From: a virus
Strand: one strand, 5' to 3'
Virus genome (UHGV): UHGV-1720292
DNA: 10,410 bases
Below are positions 719-10,217 of the stretch, one piece after another (the first letter of the stretch is position 1; each line of letters starts with the position of its first letter). The notes under the pieces were generated by a model. That model was not told where the DNA came from. It saw only the letters and a program-made list of their open reading frames with translations, and did not search any database. The translations under genes and the position numbers were made by a program.

Positions 719-741
719 AATAACAACTAAGTGAGATGAAT

Positions 742-1230
742 ATGGCAGCACCAAAGGGCAACCGATTTTGGGAGGCCCGCAGTAGTCATGGGCGAAATCC
801 TAAATTCGAATCGCCTGAGGCGCTGTGGGCTGCTTGTTGTGAATACTTCGAATGGGTGGAAGCTAACCCACTTTGGGAGATGAAGGCGTTCTCATATCAG
901 GGTGAAGTGATACAAGAGCCTATCGCCAAGATGCGAGCAATGACCATCACTGGCCTGACTCTATTCCTCGATGTAACGCTTGAAACATGGCGACAATACA
1001 GGGTGAGAGAAGACTTATCTGAGGTCGTTACGCGAGCAGAGCAAATCATCTACGACCAGAAATTCTCCGGCGCAGCCGCTGACCTTCTCAACGCTAACAT
1101 CATCGCCCGCGATTTGGGCCTCAAAGAGCAGTCGCAAGTTGAAGACGTGACACCTGATAAGGGAGATCGCGATAAGCGACGCTCTCGTATCAAGGAGCTA
1201 TTCAACCGTGGAACTGGACGCGATTCTTGA
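742..1230 (+). CDS. 3: Terminase small subunit (P22 gp3-like), 162 aa
   Basis: N-terminus [46 protein letters not shown] matches the P22 gp3 sequence as I recall it. Starting at 742 gives 162 aa, the P22 gp3 length; the track's ATG at 736 is two codons upstream and cannot be excluded. Contains the pac-like 22-mer and overlaps the large terminase start by 23 nt. Confidence 0.9.
1009..1030. other. pac: pac-like site for headful packaging initiation, inside the small terminase gene
   Basis: The 22-mer GAAGACTTATCTGAGGTCGTTA at 1009-1030 matches the P22 pac site as I recall it, which lies within gene 3. Recalled from memory and not verified here. Confidence 0.55.
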
Positions 1231-2707
1231 TAACCTGAGCGACGAAGAGCAAATCGAATTGCTCGAGCTACTCGAAGAAGAAGAGAACTACCGGAACACA
1301 CACCTGCTATATGAATTTACGCCATACAGCAAACAGCGTGAGTTCATCGACGCCGGGCATGACTATCCAGAGCGATGTTTTATGGCTGGTAACCAGCTTG
1401 GTAAGTCATTTACTGGTGCTGCTGAAGTCGCGTTTCACCTTACAGGGCGTTATCCGGGCACAAAAGGCTATCCTGCTGATGGTAAATATGGCGGAGAGTG
1501 GAAAGGTAAGCGTTTCTATGAGCCTGTTGTCTTCTGGATTGGCGGCGAGACAAACGAGACTGTAACCAAAACGACTCAACGCATCCTGTGCGGTCGTATC
1601 GAAGAGAATGGTGAGCCGGGCTACGGTTCCATACCGAAAGAAGACATCATTAGCTGGAAGAAGTCTCCTTTCTTTCCGAACCTTGTTGATCATCTTCTGG
1701 TTAAGCATCACACGACTGATGGTGTTGAAGATGGCATTTCAATCTGCTACTTCAAACCATACTCGCAAGGCCGTGCTCGCTGGCAGGGTGACACAATCCA
1801 CGGCGTGTGGTTTGACGAAGAGCCACCATACAGCATTTATGGCGAAGGGCTTACCCGTACCAACAAATACGGGCAATTCTCGATTCTGACGTTTACCCCG
1901 CTGATGGGGATGTCTGACGTTGTTACCAAGTTCCTGAAGAATCCCAGCAAGTCGCAGAAAGTGGTCAACATGACCATCTATGACGCTGAGCACTATACCG
2001 ACGAGCAGAAAGAGCAAATCATCGCATCCTATCCCGAGCATGAGAGAGAGGCGCGTGCTCGCGGGATTCCTACGATGGGTAGCGGTCGAATCTTCCAGAT
2101 ACCGGAAGAGACGATTAAGTGTCAGCCGTTCGAGTGTCCTGATCACTTCTACGTAATTGGCGGGATGGATTTTGGATGGGATCACCCACAGGCGCAGGTT
2201 CAGCTTTGGTGGGATAAGGACGCAGACACAATCTACGTTTCACGCGTGTGGAAGGCGAAAGAAAAAACAGCCGTTCAGGCATGGGGAGCTGTTAAATCAT
2301 GGGCGCATAAAGTGCCAACCGCATGGCCTCATGACGGAAACCAGCATGAGAAGGGCGGCGGTGAGCAGCTCAAAGGGCAGTATGCAGACGCTGGATTTAT
2401 GATGTTACAGGAGCATGCGACATGGCCTGATGGCGGTAATGCTGTTGAGCCTGGAATCACTGAATTGCGCGACATGATGCTTGATGGTCGCTTCAAAGTA
2501 TTCAACACCTGTGAGCCATTCTTTGAGGAGTTCCGCCTCTATCACCGTGATGAAAACGGGAAGATCGTCAAGCTTAACGACGACGTTCTCTCAGCCGTTC
2601 GCTATGCATACATGATGCGCCGCTTCGCCAAAATGATGCGCGACATCAAAAAACCAAAAGAGAAAAAGATACCAGCCCCAATCAGGCCCATCGCACGGAG
2701 AACTTAA
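1208..2707 (+). CDS. 2: Terminase large subunit (P22 gp2-like), 499 aa
   Basis: N-terminus [37 protein letters not shown] matches the recalled P22 gp2 and has the same length. Walker A-like AGNQLGKS and Walker B-like VWFDEE motifs in the N-terminal ATPase half, with a C-terminal nuclease half. Stop TAA 2705-2707 abuts the portal ATG. Confidence 0.95.
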
Positions 2708-4873
2708 ATGGCCGACGAAAACAGACTCAATTCCATTCTGTGTAAGTTTGACGCGGACTGGATGGCGAGCGATGAAGCCAGAACCGAGGCGACAAATGAC
2801 CTGTATTTTAGCCGAGTGTCGCAATGGGATGACTGGCTATCAAACTACACCACCCTGCAATATCGCGGACAATTCGATGTTGTTCGCCCGGTGGTCAGGA
2901 AGCTGGTCGCAGAGATGCGCCGTAACCCTATCGACGTTCTATTCAGACCAAAAGACGGCGCTAATCCTGATGCTGCCGATGTGTTGATGGGGATGTATCG
3001 TACTGATATGCGCCATAACACGGCAAAAATTGCCGTTAACGTTGGCGTTCGTGAGCAGATAGAGTCAGGCGTTGGTGCATGGCGTCTGGTCACGCAGTAC
3101 GAAGACAACGATCCAACAAGCAACAATCAGGTAATCCGACGCCTGCCAATCCATGAAGCCTGCTCACACGTCATATGGGACGCCAACAGCAAGCAGATGG
3201 ATAAGAGCGACGCTAAGCACTGCACGGTGATTAACGCTTTGTCACGCAATGGCTGGAAAGAGTTCGCAGAGGATTACGGTATTGATCCGGACACCTTGCC
3301 ATCTTTCCAGAATCCGAACGATACATGGCTGTTTCCGTGGGTATCGAATGATGTCGTCTACGTCGCTGAGTATTACGAGGTCGAAGAGAAGAAAGAGAAA
3401 GTCTTCATCTACCGCGACCCGCTGACAGGTGAGCCGGTCAGCTATTACCAGCAGGATATCAAAGACGTCATCGACGACCTGGCTAATCGTGGATTCATTA
3501 AGGTAGCAGAGCGCAAGGTGAAGCGTCGGCGTGTGTATAAGTCGATCATCACCTGCACGCAGATACTGAAAGACCGCGAGAAGATAGCCGGAGAGCATAT
3601 TCCAATCGTTCCAGTGTATGGCGAATGGTCATTCGCTGGTGACAAGGAGTGCTACGAGGGCGTGGTAAGGCTGACGAAAGACGGTCAGCGCCTTCGTAAC
3701 ATGATCATGTCATTCAACGCCGATATTGTTGCTCGTTCACCGAAGAAGAAACCGACCTTCTTCCCTGAGCAAATCGAAGGCTACGAATACATGTACGGTG
3801 GAAATGATGACTATCCGTACTATCTGCAGAACAGGACCGATGAAAACGGTAACGACCTGCCGATTGGTCCAATCTCCTACATGGAAAACCCTGAAGTGCC
3901 GCAAGCCAACGCTTACATGCTTGAGGCTGCCACCAACGCAGTGAAAGAGGTGGCTAGTCTTGGCGTGGATGCGCAGGCGGCAAACTCTCAGGTCGCTTTC
4001 GATACCGTCAATCAACTGAACATGCGGGCGGACCTTGAGACATACGTGTTTCAGGATAACCTGGCTACCGCAATGCGACGTGATGGCGAGATTTATGCCT
4101 CAATGGTCAACGATATTTATGACGTTCCTCGTCATGTAACGCTGACACTTGAAGATGGAAGCGAGAAAGACGTTCAACTCTATGCGCAAGTTGTAGATTA
4201 CCAGTCTGGCAATGTGGTCACACTCAACGACATTCGCGGTCGCTATGAGTGCTATACAGACGTTGGACCATCCTTCCAGAGTATGAAGGAACAGAACCGC
4301 GCAGAGATTCAGGAGTTGCTCACCAAGGTTCCGCAAGGTACTCCAGAGTTCCAGATGCTGATGCTGCAATACTTCACGCTCCTTGACGGTAAAGGCGTCG
4401 AGATGATGCGAGAGTACGCGAATAAGCAACTGGTGATGATGGGGCTGAAGAAACCAGAAACACCTGAAGAGATGGAGATGGTGCAACAGGCACAACAACA
4501 GCCGCAGCAGCCATCAGCAGAGCAAATTCAGGCGCAGGGTATCCTTCTGCAAGGTCAGGCTGAATTGCTCAAGGCAGAGAACCAACAGGCGCAGATTCAG
4601 GTTGAAGCCGCCAAGGTTGAAGCCCAAAACCAACTCAACGCCGCGAAGATTGCAGAAATCTTCAACAATATGGACCTCGACAAGCAGGCAGAACTGCGTG
4701 AGTACCTCAAGCTCGTAGGTCAATTCCAGCAACAGCGCAGCAAAGATGCTCGTGCTAACGCTGAGCTGCTTCTTAAAGATGCAGACCAGACTCATTCACA
4801 ACGCATGGATTTCGCGAATCTTATGCGTCAAGTTCAAATCCCCTCCGGCGGAGTAGCCGAGACACCTCAATAA
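2708..4873 (+). CDS. 1: Portal protein (P22 gp1-like), 721 aa
   Basis: Collinear with the recalled P22 portal (725 aa), including the N-terminus MAD.ENRL and internal [25 protein letters not shown]. Ends in a Gln/Ala-rich helical tail ([50 protein letters not shown]). Confidence 0.95.
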
Positions 4874-4886
4874 GAGAGAGTTAATC

Positions 4887-5798
4887 ATGGACCAAACCAC
4901 CGACATTCAGGCTTCTGAAGAATTAACCCTGCCCGGCAATCATGCAGCGGCATCTGCTGATGGCTTAGTTGTCGATAATGCCAACGACAACGCAGGTCAG
5001 GAAGAAGGCTTCGAGATTGTCCTGAAAGACGATGAGAAACCAAAACAAGACCCGGCAACTAATGCTGAATTTGCCCGTCGCCGCATCGAACGCAAACGCC
5101 AGCGTGAGCTTGAGCAGCAGATGGAAGCGGTTAAGCGTGGAGAATTGCCGGAGCACCTGCGGGTGAACCCTGAGTTACCAAAACAACCAGACCCTAACGA
5201 TTATCTTTCCGAAGATGCACTGGCTAAGTACGACTATGACCAGAGCCGCGCACTGGCTGCCTTCCAGCAGGCAAACAGTGAATGGCAGATCAAGGCTATG
5301 GACGCACGAAGCCAGGCTGTCGCCGAGCAGGGTCGCAAAACTCAGGAGTTCACCCAGCAATCAGCGCAATACGTCGAGGCAGCCCGTAAGCACTACGACG
5401 CAGCGGAAAAGCTCAATATCCCTGACTATCAGGAGAAAGAGGATGCATTCATGCAACTGGTGCCGCCAGCAGTCGGTGCCGACATCATGCGCCTCTTCCC
5501 GGAGAAATCCGCTGCTCTCATGTATCACCTTGGTGCTAATCCTGAAAAAACACGCCAGTTGCTGGCGATGGACGGGCAATCCGCGTTGATTGAACTCACT
5601 CGACTGTCAGAACGTTTAACTCTCAAGCCTCGAGCCAAACCTGTTTCAGAAGCCCCGCTACCTGATGAACCCATTCAGGGACACGCTGTTGCTGCAAATA
5701 TATCTGCGATTGAAAAGCAGATGGAAGCGGCAGCAAACAAAGGGGATGTAGAGACATACCGCAAGCTCAAGGCGCAACTGAATAAAGGAATTCGATAA
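4887..5798 (+). CDS. 8: Scaffolding protein (P22 gp8-like), 303 aa
   Basis: Same length as P22 gp8. Charged, Ala/Gln/Glu-rich helical protein with a C-terminus (...[19 protein letters not shown]) resembling the P22 scaffold coat-binding helix-turn-helix. Sits between portal and coat; GAGAGAG ribosome-binding site upstream. Confidence 0.9.
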
Positions 5799-6320
5799 TT
5801 ATTTCGATATCGTGATGTTGTTTTCCTCGTCAAACTTTCTGATTACTTCTTTCGCCTCTTCGAATGAAGAACATACTTTTTGCACTCTTGCATTAAGCAG
5901 TCGCTTATGAGCGATCCATCTTTTCCGCGTGTTGCAAAAGTAAACTCCAGATATTCCGCTGGAGTTATTTTTAGATAGTTTGATTCTATTCCTTTGGTTT
6001 GCTGATTTTTTCACAAGACGAAGATTTTCAATTCTGTTGTCGTGTCGAATCCCATTTATATGGTCAATTTCCATGCCTTCTGGAATATCTCCGTTAAACA
6101 TTACCCATACGATGCGGTGTGCTAGCCACTTAATGCCGTTAATTCTTATGCGGATATATCCATTGCTTTCTAAAAGACCAGCAACTTTCCCAGCGTGTTT
6201 TGCATTCCAAACGTTGTGATAGTTGCGATTCTTTTTGTTGTTGAAAAATTCAGAGCTTCTGGCTTTCCAAACCAAAGAACCATCGCGGTATTCGAAGTAT
6301 TCATTCAGTTCCATGCTCAT
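5799..6320 (-). CDS. HNH homing endonuclease with NUMOD4-like N-terminus, HNH_3-type nuclease motif and C-terminal AP2-type DNA-binding domain, 173 aa
   Basis: Nuclease motif EIDHINGIRHDNRIENLRLVKKSANQRN. AP2-like segment SGISGVYFCNTRKRWIAHKRLLNARVQKVCSSFEEAKEV. NUMOD4-like N-terminus NEYFEYRDGSLVWKARSS. Antisense to the late operon. My hand count gives about 38-39 percent GC over 5821-6360, against about 50-52 percent in sampled flanking 60-mers. Alternative start at the second Met (6312-6314). Confidence 0.85.
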   Translation of the reverse strand: MSMELNEYFEYRDGSLVWKARSSEFFNNKKNRNYHNVWNAKHAGKVAGLLESNGYIRIRINGIKWLAHRIVWVMFNGDIPEGMEIDHINGIRHDNRIENLRLVKKSANQRNRIKLSKNNSSGISGVYFCNTRKRWIAHKRLLNARVQKVCSSFEEAKEVIRKFDEENNITISK

Positions 6321-6387
6321 AACCCTAATGCGCTATATGTTGATATAACAATAGTATAGCACATAAAGAAAGTAAGGTATTCAATAT

Positions 6388-7683
6388 ATGACTCTCAAAG
6401 AAGGGCAGTTAGTTACTTACGCTATCGATGAAATCATCGAAACCGTCCAGAACCTGACGCCAATGGCGTCCAAAGTGACAAAATACACCCCTCCGGCAGA
6501 ATCCATGCAGCGTTCAAGCAACACCGTGTGGATGCCTGTTGAGCAGGAAGCGCCAACCCAGACTGGCTGGGATTTAACTGGCAACGCAACCGGGATTCTG
6601 GAACTCTCCGTGAAATGCAACATGGGTGATCCGGATAACGATTTCTTCGAGCTTCGTGCAGATGACCTGCGTGATGAGCGTTCTTACCGTCGCCGCATCC
6701 AGGCATCCGCCAAAAAACTGGCGAATAACATTGAGTCAGCGATTGCCAAACAGGCAACTGAAATGGGCTCGCTTGTTGTTCACGATACCCGCGCAATTGG
6801 TCCATCTACTGGCCTGTCTGGCTGGGATTTTGTGTCTGATGCAGAGCGCCTGATGTTCTCCCGTGAGCTAAACCGCGATATGGGCATCAGTTACTTCCTG
6901 AACCCTGACGATTACCGCAAAGCAGGCCGCAACCTGGTAGATGGTGACATCTTCGGGCGCGTTCCTGAAGAAGCGTATCGCAACGGTACTATTCAGCGTC
7001 AGATTGCTGGCTTTGATGAAATTCTTCGCTCGCCGAAACTTCCTGCAGTTACCAAGTCAACCGCTACTGGTGTAACTGTTTCTGGTGCGCAGAAGTTTAA
7101 GCCGCAGGCATACACCCTTGATACCGATGGTAACAAAGAGAACGTCGACAACCGTGTTGCAACGGTGACCGTATCCTCCACCACCGGATTTAAGCGCGGC
7201 GACAAAATCAGCTTCACTGGTGTGAAATTCCTGTCTCAGATGGCGAAGAACGTGCTGACTGATGATGCGACTTTCTCAATCACCCGTGTGATCGATGGTA
7301 CTCACATCGAAATCACGCCGAAACCGATTGCACTGGATGACGCGTCACTGACAAAAGAAGAGAAGGCTTACGCTAACGTAAACACCTCTCTTGCTGATTC
7401 CACTCCGGTAAACGTTCTGAACGTGGCAACAACCACCGCTAACGTGTTCTGGGCTGATGACTCAATCCGCCTGCTGTCTCAGCCGATTCCGGTAACCCAT
7501 GAACTGTTTGCTGGCATGAAAACGTCTTCCTTCAGCATTCCTGGTATTGGTGTTAACGGCATCTTCGCAACGCAGGGTGATATCAATACTCTGTCTGGTA
7601 AGTGCCGTATTGCTGTGTGGTATTCAGCATGTGCTGTACGGCCAGAGGCAATTGGTGTTGGTCTGCCTAACCAGACCGCGTGA
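6388..7683 (+). CDS. 5: Major capsid (coat) protein (P22 gp5-like), 431 aa
   Basis: Near-collinear with the recalled P22 coat protein (430 aa), for example [91 protein letters not shown] and the C-terminus [18 protein letters not shown] ribosome-binding site upstream. Confidence 0.95.
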
Positions 7684-7690
7684 TAACCAG

Positions 7691-7716
7691 AGGGAGCTTC
7701 GGCTCCCTTTTCTATT
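7691..7716 (+). terminator. Rho-independent terminator immediately downstream of the coat gene
   Basis: AGGGAGC (7691-7697), TTCG tetraloop (7698-7701), GCTCCCT (7702-7708), then a T-rich run TTTTCTATT. Begins 8 nt after the coat stop codon. Likely partial, given that essential genes follow. Confidence 0.7.
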
Positions 7717-7726
7717 GGAGATACCA

Positions 7727-8320
7727 ATGAGCGTAATGATTTTTCAGGCTGGCGGAGATACCAAAATCTGGGGACGCAAGCTGAAAACGAAAACCGTTGA
7801 TCCTGATGATGTAGCTGTGCACTTAGCAAATGGCTGGTATAAGCACCCTGACGATGTTCCTGATGATCCTCTTGTTGGTGATCACATTAGGAGTGTTGGC
7901 GTAGGTGAAACTTCCCCAGTTGATATGGGCGAAGTGTCCGACGGTTATCACACTTTTAACGAGCTTTACGCTCACCGAGTGCGCCTCTTCTCATCGCTGA
8001 TGCATGCTTACGCTGAGCTTTCGTGGTGGTCTCGCAAACACAGTGACGGTGAAGAGTGGGATGGCTGGATCATTGCTGGTATCACCACTCCAGAAGGCGA
8101 AATCACTTATCACCTACCTGTTGAAGAAATCGAGTTCCTTCCTGAAGGTACTGAGCTTGAGTTCGGGAAAGAGTGGGATGGTCATGAAGCAAATGATGTT
8201 CTTGGACGACTCCTGAGTTTGCGTCCGGCTATTGCAGAGCCAGAGCCAGAAGAAAAACAGCGTAAAAAGCCTGGTCGAAAACCTAAGGCGGCAGCAGATG
8301 AACCTGACAACGAAGGGTGA
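7727..8320 (+). CDS. Hypothetical acidic protein, 197 aa, between coat and gene 4; function unknown
   Basis: ATG 7727 with GGAG (7717-7720) 6 nt upstream, just past the coat terminator. The track's longer 7547..8320 ORF is the same frame extended back through the coat 3' end and the terminator. D/E- and W-rich, with two EWDG motifs ([11 protein letters not shown] and [11 protein letters not shown]) and a basic C-terminal tail [15 protein letters not shown] content similar to flanks. Overlaps gene 4 by 23 nt. No family recognised. Confidence 0.7.
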
Positions 8321-8798
8321 TTTAGTCCTTGCGGCATTACGTAAGCTCGGTGTGGCATCAAATGCCACGTTAACAGATGTCGAACCGCAGTCTATGGAAG
8401 ACGGCGTCAACGACCTTGAAATGATGATGGCTGAATGGATTGGCGGTGATGCGTCACCTGGTATCAACGTTGGCTACATTTTTGCTGATGCAGATGTTGC
8501 TCCGGATCCGGGCGATGAGCACGGTTTATCAAATAACGCTATCAATGCCGTCATTTTCAACCTTGCCTGCCGCATTGCTCCAGATTATGCGCTGGAAGCG
8601 TCTGCAAAACTTATAACCACTGCCAGATACGGGAAAGAGCGACTCGTCAAACTGTCTGCAATGGACAGAGCAAAAGCCGCTAAATGTAAGTCAGGTTATC
8701 CAAACCGTATGCCTGTTGGTAGTGGTAACCAGTTGGCGAAGTGGAACGGTTGGAATTACTTCCAGCGAAAGGAACCTTGCGATAACGGGAGCGAATAA
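8298..8798 (+). CDS. 4: Head-completion / tail-adaptor protein (P22 gp4-like), 166 aa
   Basis: Starting at ATG 8298 ([32 protein letters not shown]...) gives 166 aa, the recalled length of P22 gp4, with matching N-terminal and [14 protein letters not shown] motifs. The track's 8232 start would add 22 residues inside the preceding ORF. Confidence 0.85.
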
Positions 8799-10217
8799 AT
8801 GCCGATTCAGCAACTTCCGCTTATGAAAGGTGTCGGCAAAGACTTTCGAAACGCCGACTATATCGACTATCTGCCAGTGAATATGCTGGCTACACCAAAA
8901 GAAATCCTTAACAGCAGCGGATATCTTCGCTCATTCCCGGGCATTGCCAAACGTTCTGATGTGAACGGTATATCGCGCGGCGTCGAGTACAACATGGCGC
9001 AGAGTGCTGTATATCGCGTGTGTGGGGGCAAGCTGTATAAGGGCGAAAGCGAAGTCGGTGATGTTGCCGGAAGTGGTCGTGTATCAATGGCGCATGGTCG
9101 GACATCTCAGGCTGTAGGCGTTAATGGTCAACTGGTAGAGTATCGCTATGATGGCACGGTTAAAACCGTCTCAAACTGGCCTGCAGATAGCGGATTCACT
9201 CAGTATGAGTTAGGTTCGGTTCGTGACATTACGCGCTTGCGTGGGCGTTATGCGTGGTCAAAAGACGGCACTGATTCATGGTTTATCACTGACCTTGAAG
9301 ACGAATCGCATCCTGACCGTTACAGCGCACAATATCGTGCCGAGTCTCAGCCTGACGGCATCATCGGCATCGGAACATGGCGAGACTTCATCGTCTGCTT
9401 TGGTTCATCGACGATTGAATATTTCTCCCTGACTGGCGCAACCACCGTTGGTGCCGCTTTGTATGTCGCACAGCCATCACTGATGGTGCAAAAAGGCATC
9501 GCCGGGACTTACTGCAAAACGCCGTTTGCTGATTCGTATGCGTTCATCAGCAATCCGGCAACAGGTGCGCCGTCTGTGTACATCATCGGTTCCGGTCAGG
9601 TATCACCAATCGCCAGCGCGAGCATTGAGAAAATACTACGCTCCTACACTGCTGATGAACTGGCTGATGGCGTGATGGAGTCTCTGCGATTTGATGCGCA
9701 TGAGTTGCTGATTATCCACCTTCCGCGCCATGTCCTCGTGTACGACGCATCTTCAAGCGCCAATGGTCCGCAATGGTGTGTGTTGAAAACAGGCCTGTAT
9801 GACGATGTGTACCGCGCTATCGACTTCATTTACGAAGGCAATCAGATAACGTGCGGCGATAAGCTGGAGTCCGTGACCGGGAAATTGCAGTTCGACATCA
9901 GCAGCCAGTATGGTCTTCAACAGGAACACCTGCTGTTTACTCCTCTGTTCAAAGCGGATAACGCCAGAGTTTTCGACCTTGAAGTTGAATCTTCAACTGG
10001 CGTTGCGCAGTACGCTGACCGCCTGTTCCTCTCTGCAACCACTGACGGAATCAATTACGGACGTGAGCAGATGATTGAGCAGAATGAACCGTTCGTTTAC
10101 GACAAGCGCGTTTTATGGAAGCGAGTCGGGCGCATCAGGAAAAATGTTGGCTTCAAATTGCGCGTTATCACGAAGTCACCTGTAACTCTGTCTGGCTGCC
10201 AGATAAGGATTGAGTAA
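8799..10217 (+). CDS. 10: Tail hub / adaptor protein (P22 gp10-like), 472 aa
   Basis: Same length as P22 gp10 (472 aa) and in the conserved position between gene 4 and gene 26. ATG abuts the gene 4 stop. Confidence 0.85.

Follow-up and report, generated by a model that had tools for sequence, protein, structure and literature searches.

Gene Content of the Scaffold/Coat Locus

The window analyzed here, a 10,410-nucleotide stretch of the virus genome UHGV-1720292, a P22-like E. coli phage, contains a minus-strand open reading frame (ORF) of 173 residues lodged between the genes for a scaffolding protein and a coat protein (Table 1). The ORF stop codon (TTA on the plus strand, 5799–5801) directly adjoined the scaffold stop codon TAA (5796–5798), and both the ORF and this abutment were as described in the original prediction, which was made from the sequence alone. 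A second possible start at 6314 gives a protein of 171 residues and is the PGAP call, beginning at the third codon. Pfam matches confirmed that the neighboring genes are of the P22 type, as had been proposed (Table 1). The terminase genes are about 3 kb from the endonuclease gene.

The ORF and a 67-nt spacer together form a block of 589 nt that extends from the scaffold stop to the coat start. The GC content of this block was 37.5% and that of the ORF 38.7%, compared with 50.3% in the remaining window, in agreement with an earlier hand count of 38–39% against about 50%. The lowest value for any other 589-nt stretch across the whole window was 43.1%.

A scan of 5400–6800 against Rfam at E<=1 gave no match, and thus indicated no intron and no known RNA element. 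No convincing terminator of the endonuclease gene's own was found. A terminator-like hairpin at 5943–5966 lies within the ORF; it is generated by the codons for NSSGISGV and is not conserved among the orthologs, and we therefore consider it incidental. In addition, a 23-nt imperfect inverted repeat (5791–5813/6419–6441) flanks the exchanged block. It was judged to be a chance occurrence, as these 801 nt also contain a comparable repeat (25 nt, 76%) and visual inspection of lineage L013 showed no conservation of the 23-nt repeat.

Table 1. Features at the scaffold/coat junction, in window coordinates.
Feature	Position	Strand	Remarks
Scaffolding protein gene, P22 gene 8 type	4887..5798	+	Pfam PF09306 (Phage-scaffold), E=1.7e-179
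Predicted homing endonuclease ORF	5799..6320	-	173 aa; free-standing gene; ORF call
AP2-like DNA-binding domain, C-terminal, aa 121-166	5823..5960	-	Predicted fold and homologs
HNH_3 (HNN-type beta-beta-alpha-metal) nuclease domain, aa 66-110	5991..6125	-	Pfam PF13392, E=3.9e-22
AT-rich divergent control spacer, endonuclease start to coat start	6321..6387		28.4% GC
Inverted repeat ATGCGCTATA / TATAGCACAT	6328..6364		Overlaps the -10 element
Predicted sigma-70 extended -10, TGCTATACT	6353..6361	-	32 nt upstream of the endonuclease ATG
Degenerate duplicate of scaffold 3' end, AAGGTATTCAATAT	6374..6387	+	11/14 positions match
Coat (major capsid) protein gene, P22 gene 5 type	6388..7683	+	Pfam PF11651 (P22_CoatProtein), E=1.2e-164
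Recoded patch, coat codons 2-13	6391..6426	+	14 substitutions relative to the common empty allele, 11 silent
Candidate recognition-site core (inferred)	6397..6408	+	AAA GAA GGG CAG here, presumed resistant state

Domains and Catalytic Residues of the Endonuclease

The 173-residue protein had been thought to comprise NUMOD4-like, HNH_3-like and AP2-like segments. The second of these was strongly supported, as the match to PF13392 scored 78 bits against a cut-off of 24.8 and covered profile positions 2–46 of 46. A match to PHROG_99 (HNH endonuclease) was also obtained (E=1.3e-50). Residues D86, H87 and N108 aligned with D74, H75 and N96 of I-HmuI (alignment to PDB 1U3E) and were invariant in a family alignment of 50 sequences. 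The AF2 model (pLDDT 89.5) placed the nuclease strands at 83–87 and 100–104, followed by a helix at 105–112.

The AP2-like segment also held up, although its Pfam match was weak (E=0.019 for the whole protein and 0.003 for the isolated C-terminus; 15.7–18.3 bits against a gathering score of 33.3). Its assignment to the AP2 fold is supported by homologs and by the predicted fold, the Pfam score alone being below threshold. About a quarter of the homologs listed carry PF00847, and the C-terminal model has a beta-beta-beta-alpha arrangement (strands at 126–129, 134–140 and 145–150, helix at 153–166; pLDDT about 90) that matched AP2 domains in Foldseek (9hqv_Yn, probability 1.0, rmsd 2.8 over 65; 3igm; 6sy0). 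The NUMOD4-like segment was not substantiated, since PF07463 gave no match at E<=10 with either the whole protein or residues 1–67 alone. No NCBIfam family matched the protein, and matches in PADLOC were confined to generic homing-endonuclease accessory models. The predicted product of the cassette is a monomeric nuclease of the HNH(N) type joined to an AP2 DNA-binding domain.

Control Elements in the Spacer

In relatives with an empty site, the last 14 nucleotides of the scaffold gene (5785–5798, AAGGAATTCGATAA) hold the Shine-Dalgarno sequence of the coat gene. The degenerate duplicate at the end of the spacer supplies a replacement Shine-Dalgarno sequence (AAGG). The next best match to the scaffold end in the insert was 8/14, and 11/14 was reached in 0 of 2000 shuffles. 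The same arrangement recurred in the orthologous lineages L013, L014 and L019. The duplicated scaffold end as a provider of a new coat ribosome-binding site had gone unmentioned in the original prediction.

The pattern TGNTATAMT, sought on both strands of the 10.4-kb window, had a single match, the minus-strand element at 6361..6353. Elements were present at equal distance in the orthologs of L013 (TGCTATAAT), L014 (TGCTATACT) and L019 (TTGTATAAT). This predicted promoter was recognized solely through the cross-lineage comparison; a generic two-hexamer promoter scan identified nothing in the spacer. Together, the AAGG duplicate and the extended -10 bear out the expectation that the spacer serves both neighbors, with a ribosome-binding site for coat and a promoter for the endonuclease. 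Only weak promoter candidates had been seen there: one of them, TATACT, does belong to TGCTATACT, but the extended -10 is conserved across lineages and is stronger than had been supposed. Every orthologous lineage also has an inverted repeat in the spacer, with differing arm sequences, and on the endonuclease-sense strand the spacers folded with z scores of -2.7 to -4.2.

Empty Sites and Distribution

In empty-site relatives the scaffold stop overlaps the coat start as TAATG, with nothing between. Four empty phages about 96% identical in the flanks had this junction, and P22 itself is without the insert. The endonuclease-less relatives that had been postulated therefore exist with an intact site, and set against them the bounds 5799–6387 proposed earlier were those of the exact insert. 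Empty phages include Bas106, IME10 and P22; Dewey and Louie are carriers.

The insert was present in about 20 of the 217 E. coli genomes having this scaffold/coat junction (about 9%). Among phage records, 51 matched but only 2 had the insert, and it was absent from every P22-like phage of Salmonella in the collection. This precise and sporadic insertion supports the proposal of a free-standing HNH-AP2 homing gene at the junction. HNH proteins encoded beside terminase are packaging cofactors of cos phages. The suggestion that the position is unusual for an HNH gene conflated that class with the HNH_3/AP2 homing genes, which are scattered through phage genomes, some of them beside head-morphogenesis genes.

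The gene is already annotated as "HNH endonuclease" in GenBank and RefSeq. The element was not described in the literature searched, which covered P22-like homing endonucleases, the epsilon34 genome, the Huey/Dewey/Louie announcement and BASEL; comparisons of the Casjens type in subscription journals lay outside this search. Judged by its sequence, it belongs to the known HNH-AP2 class of free-standing homing endonucleases and has so far gone unstudied.

A Recoded Patch at the Coat Gene Start

The most informative feature of the locus, a recoded 36-nt stretch at the 5' end of the coat gene, was absent from the earlier description. The three amino-acid changes in the patch are A2T, N4K and L13I, and the density of substitutions was far above the background divergence of 1.6% (binomial P=2.7e-16). 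Insert and patch formed essentially one 628-nt block in 17/17 filled alleles examined, one of which had a single patch substitution, and 20/20 filled E. coli genomes matched across the patch at >=98%; the clean comparison of insert/patch linkage is that within the E. coli lineage alone. The full recoded patch was found in no empty allele. Within 1500 nt on either side there were 13 fixed differences between filled and empty alleles, all in 6391–6426; the carrier-specific differences sit 4–39 nt from the insert. One pair, the filled contig L081 and the empty phage Bas106, was near-isogenic over about 5 kb: from -2689 to +2519 the two differed by the insert, 14 patch positions and 5 SNPs only.

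Filled alleles had a diversity of 0.41% over the insert, compared with 1.06% for the left flank and 1.9% for the right, a 2.6- to 4.7-fold reduction in the insert. By flank distance, filled and empty alleles were interspersed, and spread of the cassette within the E. coli lineage looks recent.

A candidate core for the recognition site lies within the patch. In empty sites across P22-like phages this core reads AAY GAA GGT CAA. At coat nucleotide 18 (6405), G was shared by 4/4 lineages with the endonuclease and occurred in 1/20 distinct empty junctions; correspondingly, coat codon 6 was GGG in all four carrier lineages and GGT or GGC in 19/20 distinct empty junctions.

Orthologs, Age and Selection

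Orthologs with 82%, 74% and 59% amino acid identity occupied the same junction in the same orientation in diverged P22-like phages, all of them known from metagenome assemblies only. These carrier lineages have diverged to synonymous saturation, and their orthologs are intact. The dN/dS relative to the 82% ortholog was about 0.05, similar to that of the coat gene. Phage homologs outside the scaffold/coat junction had at most 49% identity, and a GTDB scan of one genome per species identified no close ortholog (<=49% identity).

The orthologs keep a GC deficit of about 10 points. Low GC had been read as a sign of recent acquisition, a reading we do not follow: since the diverged orthologs at this junction share the deficit under strong purifying selection, it is not evidence of recent arrival. 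Instead, the shared junction, the retained deficit and the purifying selection indicate an old association between cassette and junction.

Comparison with Known Systems

The HNH(N)-AP2 phage homing family is that of Magnani et al. 2004. The HNH(N)-AP2 genes of Xanthomonas phages Xp10, OP1 and Xop411 and the IPA-HNH of ICP1 share with our gene the order HNH_3/HNN then AP2, and all are intergenic, sporadic and AT-rich relative to the host phage. Unlike these relatives, the gene studied here belongs to temperate P22-like phages, occupies one fixed junction, lies antisense to the late operon and brings a replacement ribosome-binding site. We know of none of these relatives with a mapped target. 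The boxes HR..W, DH, DNR and NLR of the Xanthomonas phage proteins are also found in the 173-residue protein (PMC2248197).

The best solved-structure match, and the best Foldseek match of the model, was I-HmuI (1U3E), the HNH nicking enzyme of Bacillus phage SPO1 (sequence E=8e-4, fold probability 0.99), in which the catalytic Asp-His and the metal-binding Asn are conserved. I-HmuI is intron-encoded, is only about 23% identical and has a helix-turn-helix C-terminal domain where AP2 is found here; the whole-chain TM-score was low (0.34) because the domain arrangement differs.

The mob (mobA, mobE) and seg genes of T4 likewise encode free-standing endonucleases between conserved genes, with co-conversion of flanking markers and protection of the carrier by target sequence differences, both of which are proposals in our case (PMC2988022, PMC2790892). 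The T4 genes differ in belonging to a virulent phage, in being mostly co-oriented, promoter-less passengers and in often directing cleavage far from the gene, whereas the gene here is antisense, has its own predicted promoter and has carrier-specific differences close to the insert.

A Probable Homing Cassette and Its Alternatives

We think it likely that the block of 589 nt represents a cassette for a free-standing homing endonuclease that resides at the P22-like scaffold/coat junction. The gene has an extended -10 of its own, from which host sigma-70 polymerase probably transcribes it against the direction of the late operon, and the enzyme probably acts, by cutting or nicking, close to where the coat gene begins. 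The population comparisons suggest that the cassette copies itself into relatives without the insert. In the proposed mechanism, a carrier and an endonuclease-less genome would share one cell, through co-infection or as prophage and incoming phage, and the empty allele would be nicked or cut at or near the coat start, the candidate core being AAYGAAGGTCAA (coat nt 10–21). The carrier genome would then serve as the template for recombinational repair, by which the cassette and recoded coat codons 2–13 would be copied in. Mutations in those codons and in the duplicated scaffold-end sequence would protect the carrier itself, and the cassette would be harmless to the phage, leaving the scaffold frame intact and replacing the coat ribosome-binding site. 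We infer in this way the activity of the enzyme, its cleavage site, the kind of cut (a nick or a double-strand break), which way conversion runs and the timing of expression. HNH-AP2 homing endonucleases are known in phages (PMC10448857, PMC2248197), and intronless homing with co-conversion has precedent (PMC2988022).

Several considerations weigh against this mechanism. In T4, the characterized free-standing enzymes often cleave at a distance of hundreds to thousands of base pairs from their own gene (PMC2988022), so the target could lie beyond the 3 kb compared and the patch could be a mere tightly linked polymorphism. Loss of the insert through recombination with an empty phage would look identical in the isogenic pair, and the single right-hand boundary of the filled E. 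coli alleles fits one origin plus ordinary recombination equally well. The GGG-CAG of the four carrier lineages may reflect common descent of a linked segment and not selection for immunity. In addition, an efficient gene drive would be expected to exceed a frequency of about 9%.

The cassette might instead be a retained weapon or exclusion factor, expressed in lysogens in the manner of a moron, that cuts the coat start of incoming or co-induced endonuclease-less P22-like phages. The lysogen would be protected and progeny biased to the carrier (interference competition); this is compatible with homing and adds a benefit to the carrier. We regard it as possible, though rather unlikely. Intact orthologs at one junction despite synonymous saturation, with the low dN/dS, are not what a homing cycle of gain, decay and loss predicts, but such purifying selection is also expected of a homing gene that repeatedly invades empty alleles in a recombining population. 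The activator-independent extended -10 opposes a late operon that is silent in lysogens, and the block's own promoter, differing GC and location amid late genes are moron hallmarks. Lambdoid morons, likewise extra late-operon genes, are usually co-oriented, have a terminator and are lysogen fitness factors, whereas this gene encodes a nuclease with homing signatures. Endonucleases have precedent in competition between co-infecting phages (PMC11620839), as does T-even marker exclusion (PMC2988022). Against these points, PADLOC yielded generic "homing endonuclease" accessory models only, and the gene is carried by only about 9% of prophages. Chimeric empty alleles were present in 8 E. coli genomes; if there is a weapon, these "escape" alleles would be footprints of inter-phage conflict. 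The fullest version, a long-retained inter-phage weapon with a host-type promoter in the prophage that cuts the deeply conserved 12-nt coat-start motif of relatives that superinfect or are co-induced and excludes or converts them, we consider doubtful.

An old insertion, inactive or non-homing, could also have been shuffled passively by ordinary recombination, the patch being linked donor sequence. We consider this improbable. P22-like genomes are highly mosaic (PMC11990801), the filled E. coli alleles have one identical block and boundary, as a single origin predicts, their coat 5' end is similar to the one in the diverged lineage L013, and the empty alleles include a chimera. The L014 junction, moreover, is a recombination boundary, its scaffold end being 99% and its coat gene 87.5% identical to L226; this was the nearest empty partner, and no near-isogenic one was found for either L013 or L014. 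However, decay would be expected of an inactive gene, and the catalytic residues are invariant and the dN/dS is low; the reduced diversity of the insert indicates spread faster than the background, and the conservation of the promoter points to expression that continues. All four carrier lineages have also kept GGG at coat codon 6, although nearby silent sites are saturated.

Finally, a packaging cofactor of the terminase-adjacent kind found in cos phages, displaced into the head-gene block, is suggested by an HNH protein encoded inside a morphogenesis operon, with the terminase genes some 3 kb away, but is extremely improbable given the homing-type HNH_3 match and AP2 domain, the opposite strand, the headful packaging of P22-type phages, which needs no HNH cofactor, and the absence of the gene from over 90% of the phages that share these terminase, portal, scaffold and coat genes, near-isogenic ones included, the viable empty Bas106, IME10 and P22 effectively refuting it.

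Implications

Considered as annotation, the finding is ordinary. The element is of a kind already known; what is unusual is how clean a natural experiment it offers here. To our knowledge, nearly all studies of homing endonucleases have dealt with virulent phages (T4, SPO1, T5, ICP1), while this one is found in temperate P22-like phages, at the junction of two of the best-studied assembly genes. Natural controls are at hand in the carriers Dewey and Louie, in near-isogenic empty Bas106, which was isolated on the same E. coli K-12 host in the same laboratory, and in the partly converted alleles of E. coli genomes. With such controls, homing, target-site immunity and possible prophage-mediated exclusion are directly testable in a tractable system. 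The locus also indicates a route by which two translationally coupled genes can harmlessly accommodate a cassette, through duplication of the end of the upstream gene, which recreates a ribosome-binding site. It cautions, too, that low GC content in a cassette of this sort is stable and does not serve as a clock. If the gene were indeed a retained weapon, it would give lysogens a system of superinfection exclusion and gene drive based on a homing endonuclease.

The insert at the scaffold-coat junction

The genes in the window form the packaging and head-assembly operon of an E. coli phage or prophage that is P22-like (Lederbergvirus-type). The nearest deposited phages, Louie and Dewey, were 96.7% identical to it across 88% of its length, and neither was identical. 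Between the coat and gp4-type genes, the segment 7684-8231 differed in size and content among close relatives; in the window it contains the WDGH-domain ORF (Pfam PF25311, E=2.3e-39), and other small ORFs occupied it in the phages Bas106 and Dewey and in E. coli prophages.

Genes flanking the insert in the window
Gene	Coordinates	Strand	Remark
Small terminase	736-1230	+	
Large terminase	1208-2707	+	
Portal	2708-4873	+	
Scaffold	4887-5798	+	
Coat	6388-7683	+	
WDGH-domain gene	7547-8320	+	ORF as listed; real start probably later
gp4-type tail accessory factor	8232-8798	+	
gp10-type stabilisation protein	8799-10217	+	

Four phages whose flanks match the window at ~96% identity (CurroJimenez Bas106, IME10, APC_JM3.2 and HZ41) have a scaffold stop and coat start that overlap (…CGATAATGGCA…), leaving no sequence between the two genes, and the P22 junction is arranged likewise. 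This sets the ends of the inserted block at exactly 5799-6387, the limits that the original prediction had placed on it. Also borne out were the 173-aa ORF on the minus strand (6320 to 5799), whose stop adjoins the scaffold stop without a gap (TAA/TTA), and the AT-richness of the block. The GC content of the insert was 37.5% (ORF 38.7%, 67-nt spacer 28.4%) versus 50.3% for the remaining window, and the lowest value among other 589-nt windows was 43.1%.

The insert was present in 20 of the 217 complete E. coli genomes with the junction, at 98.5-99.6% identity, and IMG/VR held 12 further carriers. Of 51 matching records in the phage collection, just two were filled, Dewey and Louie. A tblastn search with the endonuclease protein matched two places each in Dewey (PQ850600) and Louie (PQ850616), which probably have a second HNH_3-type gene elsewhere in the genome. 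The gene is already labelled “HNH endonuclease” in GenBank and RefSeq; no description of this P22-like junction element was found in the searchable literature.

Domains and predicted fold of the endonuclease

Profile searches supported part of the predicted HNH_3, AP2 and NUMOD4 composition. The Pfam HNH_3 match was strong (E=3.9e-22, aa 66-110), and the protein was assigned to phrog_99, HNH endonuclease (E=1.3e-50). The closest solved structure was I-HmuI (1U3E, E=8e-4), with D86, H87 and N108 aligning on I-HmuI D74, H75 and N96, which are the catalytic residues in the published structure; all three were invariant across a 50-homolog alignment. The AlphaFold2 model made from that alignment was of high confidence (pLDDT 89.5) and contained the beta-beta-alpha nuclease core.

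The AP2 match was weak and below threshold (E=0.019; E=0.003 for the isolated C-terminus), with support from the model, in which strands 126-129, 134-140 and 145-150 against helix 153-166 have AP2 topology. Foldseek against the PDB returned I-HmuI first (probability 0.99) and then AP2 domains of Toxoplasma and Plasmodium (probability 0.85-1.0), and about one quarter of the sequence homologs listed had a precomputed AP2 match. NUMOD4 was absent by Pfam search, even at E<=10. Passages in PMC10448857 (citing Magnani et al. 2004) and PMC2248197 describe HNH(N)-AP2 proteins as a homing endonuclease family of phages, cyanobacteria and protists.

Coat ribosome-binding site and predicted promoter

In empty alleles the coat Shine-Dalgarno sits within the scaffold 3' end (AAGGAATTCGATAATG). 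The 3' end of the insert, AAGGTATTCAATAT, is a degenerate copy of these 14 nt, matching at 11/14 positions (next best match within the insert, 8/14; 11/14 reached by 0 of 2000 shuffles), and it puts AAGG back at the proper spacing from the coat ATG. A pseudo-copy of the scaffold end was also found in all three diverged orthologous cassettes. These comparisons indicate that the cassette spares its host phage by carrying a duplicated coat ribosome-binding site.

On the minus strand, TGCTATACT at 6361..6353 forms an extended -10 element ending 32 nt upstream of the endonuclease ATG, and it is the single match to TGNTATAMT in the entire window. The same element was found in the diverged carrier contig L014, 34 nt from the ATG, and related ones in the carrier contigs L013 (TGCTATAAT, 33 nt) and L019 (TTGTATAAT, 30 nt). 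The spacer had been predicted to hold both the coat ribosome-binding site and the endonuclease promoter, which agrees with the AAGG copy and the conserved predicted -10; the view that only weak candidates were visible does not hold for a motif occurring once in the window and kept in four lineages. Extended -10 promoters work without a -35 element and without an activator, which makes it plausible that the host polymerase expresses the endonuclease from the predicted promoter, possibly in the prophage too.

All four lineages have an inverted repeat across the -10 (6328-6364 in the window), with unrelated arm sequences. The spacers folded better than shuffled controls, above all in the endonuclease sense (z=-2.7 to -4.2), where an outer helix joins the endonuclease Shine-Dalgarno with the complement of the coat Shine-Dalgarno. 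RNA started at the predicted promoter would be without the 5' arm of the repeat. The repeat might act as an operator, silence read-through RNA or form a hairpin in late mRNA.

Two terminator-like hairpins with T-runs were also seen. That at 5943-5966, in the endonuclease ORF, is readable on both strands and stands where late-operon transcription passes; it was not conserved among the orthologs, and the NSSGISGV codons probably give rise to it incidentally. The other, CGCCAGCAACTGGCG at 5553-5567 on the minus strand, is antisense in the scaffold gene ~230 nt past the endonuclease stop and could be the end of the endonuclease transcript; it is probably present in empty alleles too.

A recoded coat patch and a candidate target site

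Directly past the insert, 14 of the 36 positions of coat codons 2-13 (6391-6426) differed from those in the common empty allele, versus a flank divergence of 1.6% (binomial P 2.7e-16). Eleven changes were silent and the other three were A2T, N4K and L13I; beyond this patch, identity was back at the 98-99% background. The same patch was found in 17/17 filled alleles examined, one with a single-base variant, and all 20 filled E. coli genomes matched it at >=98%. The full patch was not seen in any empty allele among the E. coli genomes compared. When the 17 filled alleles were aligned with six common empty alleles, the fixed differences within 1.5 kb on each side numbered 13, all of them in 6391-6426. 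An imperfect inverted repeat (5791-5813 / 6419-6441; 23 nt, 78% complementary) brackets exactly the 628-nt exchanged block of insert and patch. We regard it as probably due to chance, since the region contains another repeat of similar quality, and inspection by eye showed no conservation in L013.

Scans that looked for the empty junction of the diverged lineages yielded 20 distinct coat 5' ends without the insert, belonging to a variety of P22-like phages, in which codons 4-7 were strikingly constant (AAY GAA GGT CAA). In all four carrier lineages, codon 4 was non-Asn and was followed by GAA GGG CAG, and coat nt 18 (6405) was G in 4/4 carrier lineages versus 1/20 empty sequences. Based on this contrast, we suggest that the endonuclease target has its core at coat nt 10-21, the altered form of which (6397-6408) would underlie self-immunity of carriers. 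The carrier lineages may instead share these bases through common descent of a linked segment. Also weighing against a target core at this position, cleavage by free-standing endonucleases can fall far from their own gene (PMC2988022).

Eight E. coli genomes (ECONIH6, L007:1514-1555; PEC301, L008; and six others) had an empty site with a chimeric coat start. Over the equivalent of 6388-6426, codons 1-3 were of the common type and codons 4-13 of the carrier type, and the remainder of the coat gene was that of the ordinary E. coli lineage. The switch lies in the interval from nt 9 to 12, in which just two bases are shared by both alleles. The chimeric allele may be the original one into which the cassette first recombined, in keeping with a carrier patch that resembles L013 at nt 4-8 and, from nt 10 on, does not differ from the chimeric allele. 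Alternatively, these alleles may stem from partial repair of a break near the switch point, and would then be resistant escapees. Both readings point to the first dozen coat codons as the site of interest.

A single further empty site, in E. coli PapM-32-1 (L009:1514-1530; corresponding to 6388-6396 of the window), had one additional codon at the very beginning of the coat gene (ATG GCA TCA TTA ...), inside the region distinguishing carrier from empty alleles, and it may be another target-site variant.

Signs of spread and age of the cassette

The filled IMG/VR contig L081 and the empty phage Bas106 were nearly isogenic: the 2,688 nt left of the junction had no differences, and the right side, as far as +2519, only the 14 patch positions and five scattered SNPs. 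Filled and empty alleles were intermixed by flank distance. Diversity among filled alleles was 0.41% in the insert, 1.06% in the scaffold flank and 1.9% in the coat flank; the common ancestor of the block is therefore younger than its surroundings, as would be expected if the block moves between genomes. The direction of any one exchange is beyond proof from sequence alone.

Proteins 82%, 74% and 59% identical to the endonuclease were encoded on metagenomic contigs, each antisense between P22-type scaffold and coat genes, with coat identities to the window of 89%, 72-74% and 69%, respectively. The divergence of the orthologs parallels that of their flanking genes. Their GC content (42-45%) was ~10 points below that of the flanks (52-55%). 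Low GC is therefore a stable property rather than the mark of recent acquisition for which it had been taken. Synonymous sites were saturated or near saturation, pN was 0.10-0.26, and dN/dS, where estimable, was ~0.05, like that of the coat gene. Together, these comparisons indicate that the association of cassette and junction is old and that the gene is clearly under selection to remain functional.

The carrier L014 and the empty contigs L226 and L222 were 97-99% identical over the 3'-terminal 300 nt of the scaffold gene and just 87.5% identical over the 5'-terminal 400 nt of the coat gene. Judged by these identities, the endonuclease junction in this lineage coincides with a recombination boundary; nuclease genes at such boundaries have been reported in other phages (PMC10448857).

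Relation to known homing systems

In its proposed mechanism, the closest systems are the mob and seg genes of T4, with intronless homing, co-conversion and marker exclusion (PMC2988022). The likeness to I-HmuI is in the enzyme core, and by architecture the protein belongs with the HNH-AP2 homing endonucleases. In contrast to these systems, this cassette is hosted by a temperate phage, lies antisense with its own predicted promoter, keeps to one fixed junction across deep divergence, and has a duplicated ribosome-binding site. With the natural alleles and the phages already isolated, homing and a possible exclusion by prophages can be put to a direct test.
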